DNA from: an uncultured Actinomycetota bacterium
GTDB taxonomy: Bacteria > Actinomycetota > Actinomycetes > Mycobacteriales > Pseudonocardiaceae
DNA: 24,000 nucleotides
Assembly: GCA_963826035.1 (NCBI GenBank)
Contig: CAWGVZ010000004.1
Span: 947,131 to 971,130, forward strand
Reading direction: 5' to 3'
Below are positions 12,079-17,859 of the stretch, in pieces. Numbering within the stretch: the first letter of the stretch is position 1; the number at the start of each line of letters is the position of its first letter. Position numbers and translations under genes: made by a program. The notes below the pieces were generated by a model. The model saw only the letters and a program-made list of their open reading frames with translations, did not search any database and was not told where the DNA came from.

Positions 12079-12215
12079 CGAGTCCCACGTTCAGCACCAG
12101 CGAGTCCCACGTTCGCGACGGCCGAGTTCCACGTTCGGTGCTGCGGCTCCCGACGCCGAACGTGGGACTCGCCAGGCTTCAACGTGGGACTCGCCAGGTT
12201 TCAACGTGGGACTCG
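12079..12215. repeat. Symmetrical repeat array: three direct copies of CGAGTCCCACGTT followed by three inverted copies (AACGTGGGACTCG), each with 22-bp period
   Basis: Forward cores lie at 12079-12091, 12101-12113 and 12123-12135 (one mismatch). Inverted cores lie at 12159-12171, 12181-12193 and 12203-12215. The centre of symmetry is about 12147. The array fills the 149-bp gap between convergent genes (stops at 12070 and 12220). Confidence 0.9.
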
Positions 12216-12219
12216 GGGG

Positions 12220-13170
12220 TCAGGGGTGGTCGGCTGCCAGAGTGGCCGCGCCCACCAGGGCGGCGTCGTCGCCGAGTTGGGCGGTGCGGATGCGCGCCAG
12301 CGGGCGGTACCCGACTCCCGTGATCTTCTTGTTGTAGTGCTCGCGGGCGTCGTCGAGGAACAGCGGGGCCGATTCCGAGACGCCGCCCGCGATGACCACG
12401 ATCTCCGGGTCGTAGATGTCGGCCACCAACGCCAGGCCCGTCCCGAGCCACACGGCCAGCTCGGCCATCGCCCGCTTCGCCAGCGGGTCGCCCTCGCGTG
12501 CCGCGGCCGCCACCTTGCGGCCGGTCACCGCACGCGGGTCGGCCACGCTGTCGCGGCGCAGCACGGTCGACCGGCCGGGGTAGCGGGCCAGCAGCTCCAC
12601 GGCGGTCGTGCTCAGCGCGGTGCCGCTGCAGTAGCGCTCCCAGCAGCCGACCTTGCCGCACGGGCAGGGCCGGCCGTCGGGCACGAGCGTCAGGTGTCCC
12701 AGCTCCGGCGCCACCCCGTAGGCGCCGCGGAACAGGGTGCCGTCGAGCAGCAGGCCGCCGCCGATCCCCGTGCCGATGGCCACGAGCAGCGCCACCCGTG
12801 AGCCGCGCGCCGCGCCGAACCGGTGCTCGGCCAGGACGGCCGCGTTGGCGTCGTGCTCGAGCACCACGGGCAGGCCCAGCCGCTCGCTGATCCGGTCGCC
12901 CACCGGGGCGTTGCGCCAGGCCAGGTGCGGCGCGAACATCACCGTGCGGCGGTCGGTGCTGACGAAACCGGCGACCGCGAGTCCGACGCCCGTGACCCGG
13001 TGGCGGGCGGCGAGGCCGGTGACCGCGCTGACGATCGCGTCCTCCAACGCGTCCTCGCTGGTGGGGGTGGCCACGCGGGCGGTGTCGATGACCGTGCCGT
13101 GCCGGTCCACCACTCCGGCCCGCACGCTCGTCCCCCCGATGTCCACCCCGATCGTGGTTCTCGCCCTCAA
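12220..13170 (-). CDS. glk: ROK-family glucokinase
   Basis: IGVDIGGTSVRAGVV ATP-binding N-terminus, and the ROK zinc motif CPCGKVGCWERYCSG. The TTG start at 13170 overlaps the upstream stop as TTGA. The longer ORF to 13446 is an Arg/Gly/Pro-rich extension that overlaps the upstream gene. Confidence 0.9.
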   Translation of the reverse strand: MRARTTIGVDIGGTSVRAGVVDRHGTVIDTARVATPTSEDALEDAIVSAVTGLAARHRVTGVGLAVAGFVSTDRRTVMFAPHLAWRNAPVGDRISERLGLPVVLEHDANAAVLAEHRFGAARGSRVALLVAIGTGIGGGLLLDGTLFRGAYGVAPELGHLTLVPDGRPCPCGKVGCWERYCSGTALSTTAVELLARYPGRSTVLRRDSVADPRAVTGRKVAAAAREGDPLAKRAMAELAVWLGTGLALVADIYDPEIVVIAGGVSESAPLFLDDAREHYNKKITGVGYRPLARIRTAQLGDDAALVGAATLAADHP

Positions 13171-13523
13171 GGCGTCGGTCCGTCCCGACGGATGGGGATG
13201 TGCTGCACGTGCGGCGCGTCGGCCGGTCGCGCCGTGGGGGTGAAGCCGGGCATGTGCGGCCCGCCCGGCTCCCACCGGTCGGCGAGGACGGCCCGCAGCA
13301 GCGCCACCAGGTCGGCCACCCGCTCCAGGTTGCGCGCCGCCAGCTCCGACGGCTCCCCGCGGACCAGCGCGACGACCGCGCACAGCGGGCACCAGCCGCA
13401 CGCACCCGGTTGCTCGGAATGATCGGCGGCGACCCGGTCGAGCCACGGCCCCGCCCGGTCGGCCACGGCGTCGGCCAGCAGCCGCAGCTCCTCCACCAGA
13501 CGCGTTCCCGGTTCGGCGGTCAC
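13167..13523 (-). CDS. Small conserved actinobacterial protein (Rv2183c/DUF5304-like) with a CGWCPLC motif
   Basis: 118 aa, made up of the last 118 codons of the ORF 13167..14705. The GTG start overlaps the ArsA-like stop as GTGA, and its own stop overlaps the glk TTG start. The position matches Rv2183c. The family assignment is from memory. Confidence 0.6.
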   Translation of the reverse strand: MTAEPGTRLVEELRLLADAVADRAGPWLDRVAADHSEQPGACGWCPLCAVVALVRGEPSELAARNLERVADLVALLRAVLADRWEPGGPHMPGFTPTARPADAPHVQHIPIRRDGPTP

Positions 13524-14716
13524 GACTCGCCTCCCGCCTCGAAGCGCAGCACCAGCCCGGTGACGCCGGCCGCGGCGTCGGTGACCGTGTACCGGCGCAG
13601 CAGCGCGGGCAGCGCCACCAGCCTGCGCACCCCGTCCACGGTGATCGCCAGGTCGTCGCCCACGCGGGCGAGGTCCAGGTCGCTGGAGTCGGTCAGCGGC
13701 AGCGCGACCGTCAGCGCGTAGACCCCGTCGGACACCGCCTCGATGCTCAGCAGCGGCGTGGTGAAGGGGTGATCGTCGGCCAGCGGGTCGGTCTCGCCGT
13801 AGAGGTCGGCCGCCAGCTCCAGCAGCGCGGCCGTCCCCACCGGCTCTGCCGGCCGGTGCTCGACGCGCCGCACGGGCAGCGTGGCCGACGCGTCCAGCTC
13901 GGCCAGCACGGCGTCCTGCTCGGCGCGCCGGACGCGCAGCCACGCGGCGGCCGGACCCACCCAGCGCCGGGCCTTGGGCACCAGCCGGTTGGCCACCAGG
14001 CCGTCGACCTTGATGCCGCGCAGCGCGAGCGCGGCGAGCGTGCGCCTGGTCTCGGCCACCACCAGCCGCTCGGGCGTGAGCACCACCCGCACGCTCGTGA
14101 CCTTCGGGTCGACCAGCAGACGGCGGAGGGCGGCCAGGTGGTCGGCCAGCCTGGTGAGCGGGGCGACCGGCACGGCGATCTTGCGGAGGTAGCCGGCGAT
14201 CGCCTCGGGCAGGGCGAGCAGCCGCAGCGTTTCGGCCGTCGGCCCGCAGTCGACCACCACCACCTCCCACGGCCCTTCCCGGGCGAGCCGGGCGACCTCG
14301 GTGAGGGCCAGCAGCTCGTCCACGCCGGGCAGCACGGTCAGTTCGGCGGCGTCCAGCGCGTCGAGCCCGGCGCCGGCGAGCACCGTGTGCAGCTGGCGGC
14401 GCAGGTCCTGCCAGGCCTTGTCCACCAGGCCGCGGGCGTCCACATGGGCCGCGTACAGGCAGGTGTCCACTTCGGACGGTTCGGCGCCCACCGGAACGTC
14501 GAACACGTCGCCCAGGGAGTGGGCCGGGTCGGCCGAGGCGACGAGCACCTTGCGGCCACCGACGGCGAGCCGGGCGGCCGTCGCCGCCGCGAGAGTGGTC
14601 TTGCCGACGCCCCCCTTGCCGGTGAACAGCAAGATCCGTGCTGGATCGCTCAGCCCTGAGGATTCGCTCCGCAAGCTCCGCTCGTCTTGATGATTCGCTC
14701 CGCAAGCTCCGCTCAT
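13520..14716 (-). CDS. ArsA/GET3-family ATPase with a C-terminal HSP20-like domain (Rv2184c-like)
   Basis: Deviant Walker A FTGKGGVGKTTLAAA. The C-terminal beta-rich segment YALTVALPL...LAITVDGVRRLVALP resembles the ArsA_HSP20 domain. The start is uncertain, because the first 21 codons from ATG 14716 are made of the two copies of a non-coding-type repeat. Alternative CTG/TTG starts lie at codons 22 and 29. Confidence 0.85.
   Translation of the reverse strand: MSGACGANHQDERSLRSESSGLSDPARILLFTGKGGVGKTTLAAATAARLAVGGRKVLVASADPAHSLGDVFDVPVGAEPSEVDTCLYAAHVDARGLVDKAWQDLRRQLHTVLAGAGLDALDAAELTVLPGVDELLALTEVARLAREGPWEVVVVDCGPTAETLRLLALPEAIAGYLRKIAVPVAPLTRLADHLAALRRLLVDPKVTSVRVVLTPERLVVAETRRTLAALALRGIKVDGLVANRLVPKARRWVGPAAAWLRVRRAEQDAVLAELDASATLPVRRVEHRPAEPVGTAALLELAADLYGETDPLADDHPFTTPLLSIEAVSDGVYALTVALPLTDSSDLDLARVGDDLAITVDGVRRLVALPALLRRYTVTDAAAGVTGLVLRFEAGGES
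14661..14714. repeat. Two tandem copies (period 31 nt) of the 23-nt motif gattcgctccgcaagctccgctc
   Basis: Copies lie at 14661-14683 and 14692-14714, with a third copy at 8908-8928. The two copies are read in different frames of the ArsA-like ORF (SGACGAN versus ERSLRSE), which argues that the repeat is conserved at nucleotide level and not at protein level. Confidence 0.85.
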
Positions 14717-14723
14717 GCGCCCA

Positions 14724-15158
14724 CTACGCGCCCTCGACCTTGCGCTTCAGCTCTTTCAGCGCGATATCCATGATCATCTTCTCGGCCTTGCGGCGGAAGA
14801 GGCCGATCATCGGCACCACCAGCTGGACGGACAGGGTGTAGGTGACCCTGGTCTGGTCGCCCTCCGGGGTGAGCACGTAGGAGCCGTTCTGCGCGCGCTG
14901 CATCTGGCCCTTCACGAGGGTCCAGCTCACCGACAGCCCGTCGGGCGCCCACTCGTAGGCCAGCGTGTACACGTCCTTGAAGGCACCGGCGTCGAGGGTG
15001 AACCGGACCTGGCGGGCCTGGCCCTCCGCCTCCTCGAGGACCTCGGTCTCCTTCACGGCGTTCGCCCATTCCGGGTACGCCGGGAAGTCGGCGATCACCG
15101 CCATGATCTCGCTGGGTGGCGCGTCGACCACGATGGACTGAGTGGACTCATCGGCCAT
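14724..15158 (-). CDS. SRPBCC (polyketide cyclase/dehydrase-like) protein, TB16.3/Rv2185c-like
   Basis: MADESTQSIVVDAPPSEIMAVIADFPAYPEWA... gives 144 aa from the ATG at 15158, the same length as I recall for Mtb TB16.3. It is the first gene of the operon ending in glk. Confidence 0.85.
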   Translation of the reverse strand: MADESTQSIVVDAPPSEIMAVIADFPAYPEWANAVKETEVLEEAEGQARQVRFTLDAGAFKDVYTLAYEWAPDGLSVSWTLVKGQMQRAQNGSYVLTPEGDQTRVTYTLSVQLVVPMIGLFRRKAEKMIMDIALKELKRKVEGA

Positions 15159-15159
15159 G

Positions 15160-16671
15160 CGGGGCAGGCTACCGGAGGGTTGGGAACTGCTCCTGGTGGT
15201 GTGTCGAAGCGTGATTGAACGCGGCGATTTGTCCATTGGCGGCGTTGTCGGTGGTGGTCGGTACGGTCATCGTCGATGAGCAAGATCATGCAGGCGTACC
15301 GGTTCGCCTTGGATCCGAGCGTGGCGCAGGAGTGGGCGTTGCGGTCGCATTGTGGCGCGCAGCGGTTCGCCTTCAACTGGGGTCTGGCTCGGGTGAAGGC
15401 GACCCTTGCTCAGCGGGACGCCGAAGCCTCCTACGGTCTTGCTGGTGATGATCTGACGCCGTCGTTGAGTTGGTCGGCGTATTCGCTGCGTAAGGCGTGG
15501 AACGGCGCCAAGGATGTGGTGGCGTCGTGGTGGGGTGAGAACTCCAAGGAGGCGTACTCCTCGGGGTTGGCGAACCTGGCCACGGCGTTGACGAACTGGC
15601 GCAACTCCCAGCGCGGCGAGCGGAAAGGACGCAAGCTCGGTTTCCCTCGGTTTCGGGGCCGTCGGTTCGGGCTGTCGTGCCGGTTCACCACCGGCAGCCT
15701 GGGTCTGGTCGATGCGGATCGGCGGCATGTGCGGTTGCCGCGGATCGGGGTGGTGCGCACGCACGAGTCGACCCGCAAGCTCGCCCGGCACGTGGAACGC
15801 GGCACCGCCCGCATCCGCTCGGCCACCGTCTCGCTGCGGTCCGGGCGTTGGTTCGTGTCGTTCTCGGTCGAGATCACCCGCGACGACCCGGCACCGGCAC
15901 GCCCGGATGGGGTGGTCGGGGTGGATCTCGGTGTGAAGTCGCTGGCCGTGCTGTCCACCGGCGAGGTCATCACCAACCCGAAACATCTCGACGTCGCACT
16001 GCGCGAACTGCGCCGGCTACAGCGGCAGGCCGCCCGCCGCCAGGGACCGGACAAGCGAACCAAGGCCAGGCCGTCAAACCGATGGCGCCAGACCCAAGCC
16101 CGGATCACGGCACTGCACGCGCAGGTGGCGAACGCGCGGCGAGATGGGCTGCACAAGCTGTCCACCCGCCTGGTGCGCACCTTCGGGACGATTGTGGTCG
16201 AGGATCTCAACGTGTCCGGCATGCTCGCCAACCGCCGTTTGGCGCGGCGTGTCGCGGGTGCCGGTTGGGGTGAGTTGCGCCGCCAGATCGAGTACAAGGC
16301 CACCTGGGCCGGTGCTGTGCGGGTGCGGGTCGCTGACCGGTGGTTCGCGAGTTCTAAGACGTGTTCGGGCTGTGGTGTGGTGAAAGCCAAGCTGCGCCTG
16401 TCCGACCGCATCTACCACTGTGACCAGTGCGGTCTCGTGCTGGATCGCGACGTCAACGCCGCCCGCAACCTCGCGGCACTGGTTGAGGCGACGTCTTCCC
16501 CGAGTTGCGGGGTGACGAGAAACGAGCCCGATGGAAACCCACGTAAGACCCGCATTGTGCGGGCGACGGGTATCGCCACGGGAAGACCCACGCCACCCGG
16601 TGCGGGCCAACGCCGACACGGCGACGCGTCGGCTCGGGACACGATTTCACATGTTTCCTGAACGGTATTGC
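15160..16671 (+). mobile_element. IS200/IS605-family element of the solo-tnpB (IS1341-like) type; ends not resolved
   Basis: It is bounded by the conserved neighbours (TB16.3-like start at 15158, metallophosphoesterase stop at 16672). It contains only tnpB, with no tnpA. Its codon third positions are visibly less GC-rich than the flanking genes (many TTG, CAT, TGT, GGT, CTT codons). Confidence 0.7.
15276..16661 (+). CDS. tnpB: TnpB, RNA-guided endonuclease of IS200/IS605-family elements (OrfB_IS605 plus Zn-ribbon)
   Basis: The N-terminus MQAYRFALDPS is typical of TnpB. RuvC-I is GVDLGVKS, RuvC-II is IVVEDLNVSGM, the zinc ribbon is CSGCG...CDQCG, and RuvC-III is DRDVNAARN. The start is ATG 15276 or ATG 15288. 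Confidence 0.92.
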   Translation: MSKIMQAYRFALDPSVAQEWALRSHCGAQRFAFNWGLARVKATLAQRDAEASYGLAGDDLTPSLSWSAYSLRKAWNGAKDVVASWWGENSKEAYSSGLANLATALTNWRNSQRGERKGRKLGFPRFRGRRFGLSCRFTTGSLGLVDADRRHVRLPRIGVVRTHESTRKLARHVERGTARIRSATVSLRSGRWFVSFSVEITRDDPAPARPDGVVGVDLGVKSLAVLSTGEVITNPKHLDVALRELRRLQRQAARRQGPDKRTKARPSNRWRQTQARITALHAQVANARRDGLHKLSTRLVRTFGTIVVEDLNVSGMLANRRLARRVAGAGWGELRRQIEYKATWAGAVRVRVADRWFASSKTCSGCGVVKAKLRLSDRIYHCDQCGLVLDRDVNAARNLAALVEATSSPSCGVTRNEPDGNPRKTRIVRATGIATGRPTPPGAGQRRHGDASARDTISHVS

Positions 16672-16690
16672 TCACCAGCGCAGCACGTAC
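16480..16690 (+). ncRNA. Candidate omega-RNA (reRNA) scaffold embedded in the tnpB 3' end, with a presumptive guide reaching into flanking DNA
   Basis: The placement is inferred from established TnpB biology. Visible hairpins lie at 16498-16512 (ccccg/cgggg), 16549-16563 (cccgca/tgcggg) and 16612-16633 (gccgac/gtcggc). The boundaries are guesses. Confidence 0.3.
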
Positions 16691-17460
16691 GGGCGTTGCG
16701 TGCGCTGGAAGTGGCCGACGTTCGCGCACTCGGTGCGCCCGATGCGCATCCGCGCCACCATCGGCTGGTGCACGTGCCCGTACAGAGCCCAGCGCGGCGA
16801 GCGTGTGCGGATCGTGTCGAGCAGCGCGGCCGAGCCGTACTCGGCCCGCCGCGAGACCACGTCGTAGATCAGCTCGGGCACGTCCGGCGGCACGTGACTG
16901 CACAGCACGTCCAGCTCCGTGAACCCGGCGAGCGCCGCCACGTACTCCTCATCGGTCCGCAGATACGGGTGGAACACCCCGCCGCGCCGGCGCACGGCCC
17001 CCGCCGGCAGCAGCGCGCCGCCCACGAACCCGAAGCGCAGCCCGCCGATCTCCGCCATCTCGCCGTCGAGGATGTGCACGCCCTCGCCGGCGAACTCCGG
17101 CCAGAGCGCGGGCGCGTCCACGTTGCCGGGAGTCGCGTACGTGGGCGCCGGCAGCACGGCGAAGATCCGCTCGTACTGGTTGCGAATGGCCTCCTCGACC
17201 ACGGCCGCCGGGTCGTCGAGGCTCGTCCACAGTGACCGGGAGAACGCGGCCAGCTCGGTGTGGTCGCGCTCCCGGCGCAGCCGCGCGAACGTCGCCATGG
17301 ACTCGGGCCCGAACACCGCGCCCATGATCCCGCCGGCATGGTCGTAGTAGTCGACGAAGTCGATCAGATCGCCCAGCACGACGAGCGCGTCGGCGCCGTC
17401 GCCGGCCTTCGCCAATGCCTCGGCGTTGCCGTGTACGTCCGACACCACATGAACCCGCAC
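16672..17460 (-). CDS. Calcineurin-like metallophosphoesterase
   Basis: The motifs DVHGN, GDLID, GNVD and GHVH occur in canonical order. 262 aa. Confidence 0.85.
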   Translation of the reverse strand: MRVHVVSDVHGNAEALAKAGDGADALVVLGDLIDFVDYYDHAGGIMGAVFGPESMATFARLRRERDHTELAAFSRSLWTSLDDPAAVVEEAIRNQYERIFAVLPAPTYATPGNVDAPALWPEFAGEGVHILDGEMAEIGGLRFGFVGGALLPAGAVRRRGGVFHPYLRTDEEYVAALAGFTELDVLCSHVPPDVPELIYDVVSRRAEYGSAALLDTIRTRSPRWALYGHVHQPMVARMRIGRTECANVGHFQRTQRPYVLRW

Positions 17461-17469
17461 ACCCGCAGG

Positions 17470-17859
17470 TTAACCAGGGGGCGGGCAGCCGGGCGGACGC
17501 CCGTCCTCGAGAACGGTCTTCAGATCGAGTGCCACGGCCTTCGCCGCCAGCTGGCGGCGGGCGATCTCGCGGCGGATCCGGGCCGGCTTGTGCGCACCCG
17601 GCAGGTCCGCGCGGAGGAAGTAGTGCAGCAGGGTGCCGTCGAGCTTCGGCTCCAGCCAGACCTCCATGGTGCCGACCAGCGCGCCCCGCACGGTCCACCG
17701 CAGCCCCTCGTCGCCGCGGTCGGCGTACACGTCCAGCTCCAGGTCCGGCCAGAAGCGGCGCCAGGCGGCGGGATCGGCGAACGCGGCGGCCACCACGCAC
17801 GGCGGCACCACGAGGAACGTCTCGTCGACCACGTCGACCCGGACATCAACGGCAGGCAC
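17470..17859 (-). CDS. SRPBCC-fold protein (Rv2186c-position homologue)
   Basis: 129 aa with high GC3. It is divergent from the FadD15-like gene, as Rv2186c is from Rv2187. The fold assignment is tentative. Confidence 0.6.
   Translation of the reverse strand: MPAVDVRVDVVDETFLVVPPCVVAAAFADPAAWRRFWPDLELDVYADRGDEGLRWTVRGALVGTMEVWLEPKLDGTLLHYFLRADLPGAHKPARIRREIARRQLAAKAVALDLKTVLEDGRPPGCPPPG

Follow-up and report, generated by a model that had tools for sequence, protein, structure and literature searches.

The question raised by the locus described here is to what kind of element a gene for a 461-amino acid (aa) TnpB nuclease belongs, where this element begins and ends, and whether it is a recent arrival or an old part of the conserved gene string in which it lies. 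The gene was found in a 24,000-nucleotide stretch of DNA (the window) from an uncultured Pseudonocardiaceae bacterium (assembly GCA_963826035.1, contig CAWGVZ010000004.1, positions 947,131 to 971,130). A preliminary description of this sequence had presented it as a solo tnpB without TnpA, and indeed the window encodes no TnpA, nor was one detected elsewhere in the genome (10.8 Mb in 25 contigs, 95% complete). We are highly confident that window positions 15180-16665 constitute a non-autonomous (solo-tnpB) insertion sequence of the IS607 family, 1486 bp in length, which entered recently and has lost tnpA. The distinguished features of the element and its flanks are:

15180-16665, plus strand: solo-tnpB IS607-family element, delimited by homology with a second copy on contig C8 of the same genome and by same-genus empty sites
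15175-15179, plus strand: left flank GAGGG, resembling a transposon-associated motif (TAM); its final GG (15178-15179) is the IS607 crossover dinucleotide
15180-15275, plus strand: left end and leader, 96 nt, beginning with TTGGGAACTG; conserved in at least 12 solo copies of other genera
15276-16661, plus strand: tnpB, 461 aa, with residues D217/E309/D392, a zinc ribbon (C363-C366, C382-C385) and an RNA-constrained tail (residues ~406-461)
16492-16665, plus strand: omega-RNA (right-end element RNA, reRNA) scaffold, ~174 nt, from RNAalifold and pair counts in 28 elements
16492-16517, 16532-16541, 16549-16563, 16576-16582, 16587-16606, 16612-16633 and 16634-16661, plus strand: scaffold helices, followed by ACGG
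16660-16665, plus strand: right-end terminus GAACGG, with its GG core at 16664-16665; invariant in 32 insertions
16666-16685, plus strand: predicted guide, 16-20 nt, TATTGCTCACCAGCGC..., taken as the first flanking bases past the right end

The boundaries were determined by comparison with other insertions and with vacant sites. The second copy (C8:24959-26435, corresponding to L002:1407-2880) shares 88% nucleotide identity with that of the window; homology extends from about position 15177 to 16665 and ends there abruptly. The right end GAACGG is identical in all 32 insertions compared, with divergence of the flank beginning at the next base, and the left flank ends with GGG in 14 of 16 related insertions, AGGG being the most frequent form. 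The alignment with relatives lacking the insertion, as proposed in the preliminary description, helped to define the ends and the GG target. For this comparison the same genus was sampled as 23 other species, from which 19 orthologous loci were fetched, and the site is empty in every one of them (19/19); the occurrence of the same gene at the same place, which would have pointed to an ancient domesticated copy, was not seen. One of these loci (L022) comes from an unpublished genome (G008), and the empty-site result stands without it.

The empty site of the window locus in genome G021 reads CCCGAGGG/TAGAGATCACC. The C8 copy is likewise absent from the orthologous site in the genus, and its empty site in G021, the nearest relative, is base-perfect, TAGG[GG]AGACCG, i.e. 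left flank, GG and right flank; the occupied junctions are TAGGGG/CTGGGAAC (the left one, ...TAGGGG/CTGGG...) and GAACGG/AGACCG. GG is present at both ends of the element. A repeat search of the element revealed neither terminal inverted repeats nor a motif common to the left and right ends beyond chance. Crossover thus took place at a GG shared by the target, the left junction and the right end, with no inverted repeats or other target duplication. A TAM of the GGG type is predicted directly 5′ of the left end. In 19 of 32 right flanks the terminal GG is followed by T, although the genomes are high-GC, so the target preference may reach one base past the GG. In a crude survey of the contexts of 13 insertion sites, made with stop-to-stop frames and carrying no claim of target bias, most sites were located within ~50 nt of a gene end.

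Assignment to the IS607 family, i.e. to the serine-recombinase type and not to IS200/IS605, is based on both the protein and its relatives. TnpB contains the Pfam domains HTH_OrfB_IS605, OrfB_IS605 and Cas12f1-like_TNB. Among NCBIfam models, it matches IS607_TnpB (NF038280) with 587 bits (cut-off 350), whereas the score for IS200_TnpB (242 bits) is below the cut-off of 425. Close homologues (70-82% identity) carry the NCBI name IS607 TnpB, while a lookup of contigs encoding the exact 461-aa protein returned no record. The 80 related loci compared include one group in which a coding sequence ends directly at the tnpB start. In at least 12 loci the product of the gene directly upstream of tnpB has a conserved C-terminal tail of the ...VLTSMCARLYGRRSA type, and the single upstream gene tested, that of locus L038, encodes an IS607 transposase (NF033518, 187 bits against a cut-off of 110, together with Pfam Resolvase). 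In another group, to which the window copy belongs, the place of tnpA is taken by a conserved leader of ~96 nt.

The nuclease itself is intact, as had been claimed from the sequence. In a phmmer alignment with ISDra2 TnpB (8h1j, 8exa; E 9e-48), D217, E309 and D392 correspond to the catalytic residues D191, E278 and D361, and two CxxC pairs are present at positions 363 and 382. Structural modelling, suggested previously as a check on the RuvC assignment, agreed with it: the best Foldseek match of an AlphaFold2 model built from 36 homologues was ISDra2 TnpB (8h1j, E 1e-24). The confidence of this model (predicted local distance difference test, pLDDT) is below 50 over residues 401-461 and only 31-42 in the RNA-constrained tail.

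The 3′ part of tnpB coincides with a conserved RNA. For an alignment of 28 homologous elements, RNAalifold predicted a multi-helix structure; in the version submitted to the covariation test, one long-range helix was exchanged for a local hairpin. In this structure 95.9% of cells are paired, compared with 32-44% when the partners were slid, compensatory changes occur in 23 of 39 pairs, and none of 500 shuffles attained the observed values. The three hairpins noted earlier (16498-16512, 16549-16563 and 16612-16633) are three of the eight helices tested, and each of the three lies in a helix with compensatory changes; the expectation that the right end and the scaffold would be found inside the 3′ region of tnpB was borne out, with the right end lying 4 nt past the stop codon and the scaffold within the coding region. 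The last ~175 nt show 80-87% nucleotide conservation in loci whose proteins are only 71-76% identical. Identity by codon position is flat in this tail (0.77/0.79/0.76), as opposed to the core (0.79/0.83/0.55), and the GC content at third codon positions (GC3) drops to 0.63 in the part of tnpB that overlaps the scaffold. Moreover, homologues use different frames for the same conserved tail bases and differ in the position of the stop, which in 19 of the 28 is the TGA of the terminal TGAACGG. In its conservation this part of tnpB resembles RNA, not protein. The overlap of the scaffold with the open reading frame (ORF) was formerly ascribed to constraint by the neighbouring gene; the flat codon identity, the frame shifts among homologues, the low GC3 and the disordered model instead identify it as a property of the family, i.e. 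its standard layout. When the genome was searched by nhmmer with the aligned scaffolds, only the two known copies were retrieved, so the genome carries no orphan omega-RNA mini-elements.

The element is inserted between two genes, both on the minus strand:

16672-17460, minus strand: metallophosphoesterase gene (Pfam Metallophos), which in relatives adjoins the SRPBCC gene on its upstream side
14724-15158, minus strand: SRPBCC (TB16.3-like) gene (Pfam Polyketide_cyc2), which starts 21 nt away from the element's left end

In the same-genus loci the two genes share a strand, with ~25 nt between the metallophosphoesterase stop and the SRPBCC start, and this adjacency was also seen in other families of the order. 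The insertion therefore splits a string of genes kept adjacent in relatives, in agreement with its earlier placement in a conserved block. The preliminary description had further stated that the SRPBCC/ArsA-like string was cut off from its original upstream DNA; this is correct, and the partner left unspecified there is the metallophosphoesterase gene, from which the string is now parted by antisense DNA of 1.49 kb. Exactly as first reported, tnpB stops (16659-16661) 10 nt from the stop codon (16672-16674) of the metallophosphoesterase gene, to which it is convergent.

Two lines of evidence address the age and origin of the insertion. Since the orthologous sites are empty, the window and C8 insertions both took place after divergence from a relative with 90-92% identity in the flanks. 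The GC3 of tnpB is 0.80-0.83, compared with 0.92-0.95 for five neighbouring genes, a difference that had already been taken as a sign of recent acquisition, with which the empty sites in relatives agree. The family is rare in the genus, where only one fragment (78-80% identity) was detected, in G001, and the closest relatives of the protein (70-82% identity) occur in Pseudonocardiaceae, Rhodococcus and Nocardia. The low GC3 and the distribution of these relatives indicate horizontal acquisition.

The 16-nt form of the predicted guide, TATTGCTCACCAGCGC, covers the metallophosphoesterase stop codon and the last three codons, and would be antisense to the mRNA, as the earlier reading of the sequence had anticipated. 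The only perfect genomic match of this 16-mer is its own flank; all other matches have at least two mismatches.

By analogy with ISXfa1 and the IS607 IStron of Clostridium, we propose the following mode of action. The element entered by a serine-recombinase crossover at the GG in the ~25-nt metallophosphoesterase-SRPBCC spacer; tnpA is lost, but the left end, an intact tnpB and the right end are retained. The tnpB transcript, if made, would give rise both to the nuclease and, after processing, to the ~174-nt omega-RNA scaffold (16492-16665), which would continue into the flank-derived guide of 16-20 nt (16666 onward). After excision, the complex may cut the vacant site, recognized by a GGG TAM and a match to the guide, and recombination from a sister copy could then restore the element. 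At the vacant site the complex would encounter GAGGG and then the guide match, and at the occupied site AACGG; the latter site is presumably spared because the right end has CGG where the TAM has GGG. TnpB would have nothing to defend against, however, unless a transposase were supplied in trans.

A source of such a transposase was looked for. No TnpA is encoded within the window or adjoining any tnpB of the genome. The best genome-wide match to NF033518 scored 40 bits, inside a 619-aa recombinase, so no IS607 transposase was recognized with this model, and when 10 related TnpA sequences were compared with the genome by tblastn, the lowest E value was 0.04. Nine genes with Resolvase domains were distinguished in open frames of 174-921 aa; they mostly encode large recombinases and none is located near a tnpB. 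In addition, 11 other places in the genome match TnpB, all of them TnpB homologues with no adjacent transposase, and the only transposase trace was one Y1_Tnp fragment (C10:1073480), IS607 TnpA not being found. With no adjacent transposases, a single Y1_Tnp fragment and no IS607 TnpA, the genome appears to carry orphan tnpB genes only. Since no cognate TnpA was found, both copies of the element, the total that resulted from the copy count advised in the preliminary description, are probably stranded for now.

The situation is different in Saccharopolyspora hattusasensis. Two solo copies (L033, L035) are located at different sites of its contig1 and have identical end regions, and they share the genome with full-length copies (L106, L111) encoding the IS607 transposase. 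This pattern suggests recent mobilization of solo elements in trans.

The C8 copy has the same orientation as panD (aspartate 1-decarboxylase), whose start codon lies 9 nt downstream of it. Owing to a 1-nt deletion close to the 3′ end of tnpB in this copy, the ORF runs past the right end into panD, with a predicted fusion protein of 619 aa (PF02261), and the predicted guide of the copy spans the ribosome-binding site and start codon of panD.

Several observations weigh against the proposed interpretation. Rfam gave no match for the whole window at gathering thresholds and only two chance-level matches (E 0.28 and 3.2) for positions 15100-16800. With a minimum-free-energy z-score of only -1.4 for the single sequence, structural support comes from covariation, and the stem at 16587-16606 contains an A-C mismatch in the window copy. 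The two copies differ by 12%, even though each was inserted after the lineage had separated from its nearest relative. At 95% completeness in 25 contigs, TnpA could also sit in unassembled sequence. Some of these points would suit a dead relic, in which the ORF is open by chance, expression or activity of TnpB and the omega-RNA has ceased, and the copy decays neutrally without a transposase. The failure to find a cognate TnpA, the frameshift that already carries the C8 ORF into panD and the mismatched omega-RNA stem are compatible with this, as is a scan of positions 14600-17600 for promoters and terminators, which gave nothing relevant and no sigma-70-like promoter. The ratio of nonsynonymous to synonymous substitution rates (dN/dS) between the two copies, 0.38, is not strongly purifying; it is nevertheless well below 1 and, together with the third-position pattern of the core, indicates past selection at the protein level, and the 461-aa frame retains every catalytic and zinc residue. 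Because the insertion is young, little decay would be expected either way, and we regard a dead relic as unlikely, though worth keeping in mind.

Other interpretations fare worse. An origin within IS200/IS605, with a Y1 transposase and transposition of single strands adjacent to a tetra- or pentanucleotide, might be suspected from the closest solved structure (ISDra2 TnpB), the domain name OrfB_IS605 and the Y1_Tnp fragment elsewhere in the genome. It was rejected on account of the sub-cut-off IS200_TnpB score, to be set against an IS607_TnpB score far over its own threshold, and of the full-length relatives, which encode a serine recombinase and not a Y1 transposase; GG at both junctions and an empty site equal to the flanks joined at GG also speak against it, and we give it almost no credence. 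Equally improbable is an old domesticated TnpB, e.g. an RNA-guided regulator of the TldR kind, fixed here to control the neighbouring operon. Complementarity of the guide to the 3′ end of the adjacent gene and the position within a conserved gene string would fit such a role. However, the 19 empty loci contradict ancient domestication, which was rejected for this reason; the RuvC triad, lost in TldR-type proteins, is intact, and the guide differs at every insertion, as expected of a mobile element.

There is also a slim chance that the young IS607-family insertion affects how the host operon functions. The two copies each occupy very short spacers of conserved gene strings, and an (A)GGG target may bias the lineage towards Shine-Dalgarno-like operon junctions in high-GC actinobacteria, with read-through antisense (window) or sense (C8) RNA acting on the neighbour and downstream genes being uncoupled or re-driven.

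The solo IS607 element resembles systems that have been characterized experimentally. For ISXfa1 of Xylella fastidiosa, crossover has been shown to take place between GG dinucleotides, and the TAM to be GGG (Yoon et al., NAR 2023, PMC10711439). The likeness comprises an IS607-family TnpB, a GGG-type TAM and a reRNA that overlaps the 3′ end of tnpB and runs past the boundary (PMC10711439). In contrast to ISXfa1, the window element has no tnpA, its scaffold is ~174 nt (reRNA of ~150 nt in ISXfa1), its left-flank consensus is (A)GGG, and its host is a high-GC actinobacterium. CboIStron of Clostridium botulinum strictly requires GG, inserts at a TGGG motif identical to its TAM, and is retained in a TnpB-dependent manner (Zedaveinyte et al., bioRxiv 2023, PMC10690162). 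Matching features are the serine recombinase with strict GG and the coincidence of TAM (TGGG) and insertion motif (PMC10690162), the preservation of the element by TnpB and omega-RNA after scarless excision, here predicted, and the consecutive omega-RNA stem-loops upstream of the guide. The window element differs in lacking both the group I intron and tnpA, and in the preference for A rather than T before GGG. ISDra2 TnpB is similar in domain order, RuvC D-E-D residues, zinc ribbon and an omega-RNA to which both the 3′ end of tnpB and the right end contribute, but ISDra2 transposes as a single strand by means of a Y1 transposase, its TAM is TTGAT, and its TnpB (408 aa) lacks the RNA-constrained tail of ~55 aa.

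The nearest counterparts are solo relatives in Saccharopolyspora, Lentzea, Actinokineospora and other Pseudonocardiaceae (L033, L035, L049, L050, L066, L102), which have the same leader, right end and scaffold, are 70-80% identical to the window TnpB in protein sequence and likewise lack tnpA. Some of their genomes, e.g. that of S. hattusasensis, also hold tnpA-bearing copies that could mobilize them, whereas none was found in the genome of the window. The tnpA-less derivative state is common in the IS607 family. The element is thus an ordinary recent copy of a well-described type, whose architecture, GG crossover, G-rich TAM and overlap of ORF and omega-RNA have already been published. For a high-GC actinobacterium, it provides a well-delimited natural pair of IS607 TnpB and omega-RNA, with exact ends and two pairs of empty and occupied sites, as well as a candidate left-flank (A)GGG motif and a covariation-backed scaffold. 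As Rfam has no model for this scaffold RNA, the latter is useful for annotation. The pair is also one further candidate for a compact RNA-guided nuclease.

Two further observations concern the DNA beyond the element. A unit of 21-23 nt, GATTCGCTCCGCAAGCTCCGCTC, is repeated at window positions 14643-14720, between the SRPBCC and ArsA-like genes; it recurs many times, frequently in tandem, in genomes of other members of the genus and resembles a genus-wide intergenic repeat. Two overlapping ORFs of 408 aa are present on the minus strand at 12179-13446. The ORF at 12179-13405 is in the wrong frame, as indicated by its GC3 of 0.60 and its GC content at first codon positions of 0.88, and that at 12220-13446, which gave no Pfam match in the frame tested, is probably the real gene.

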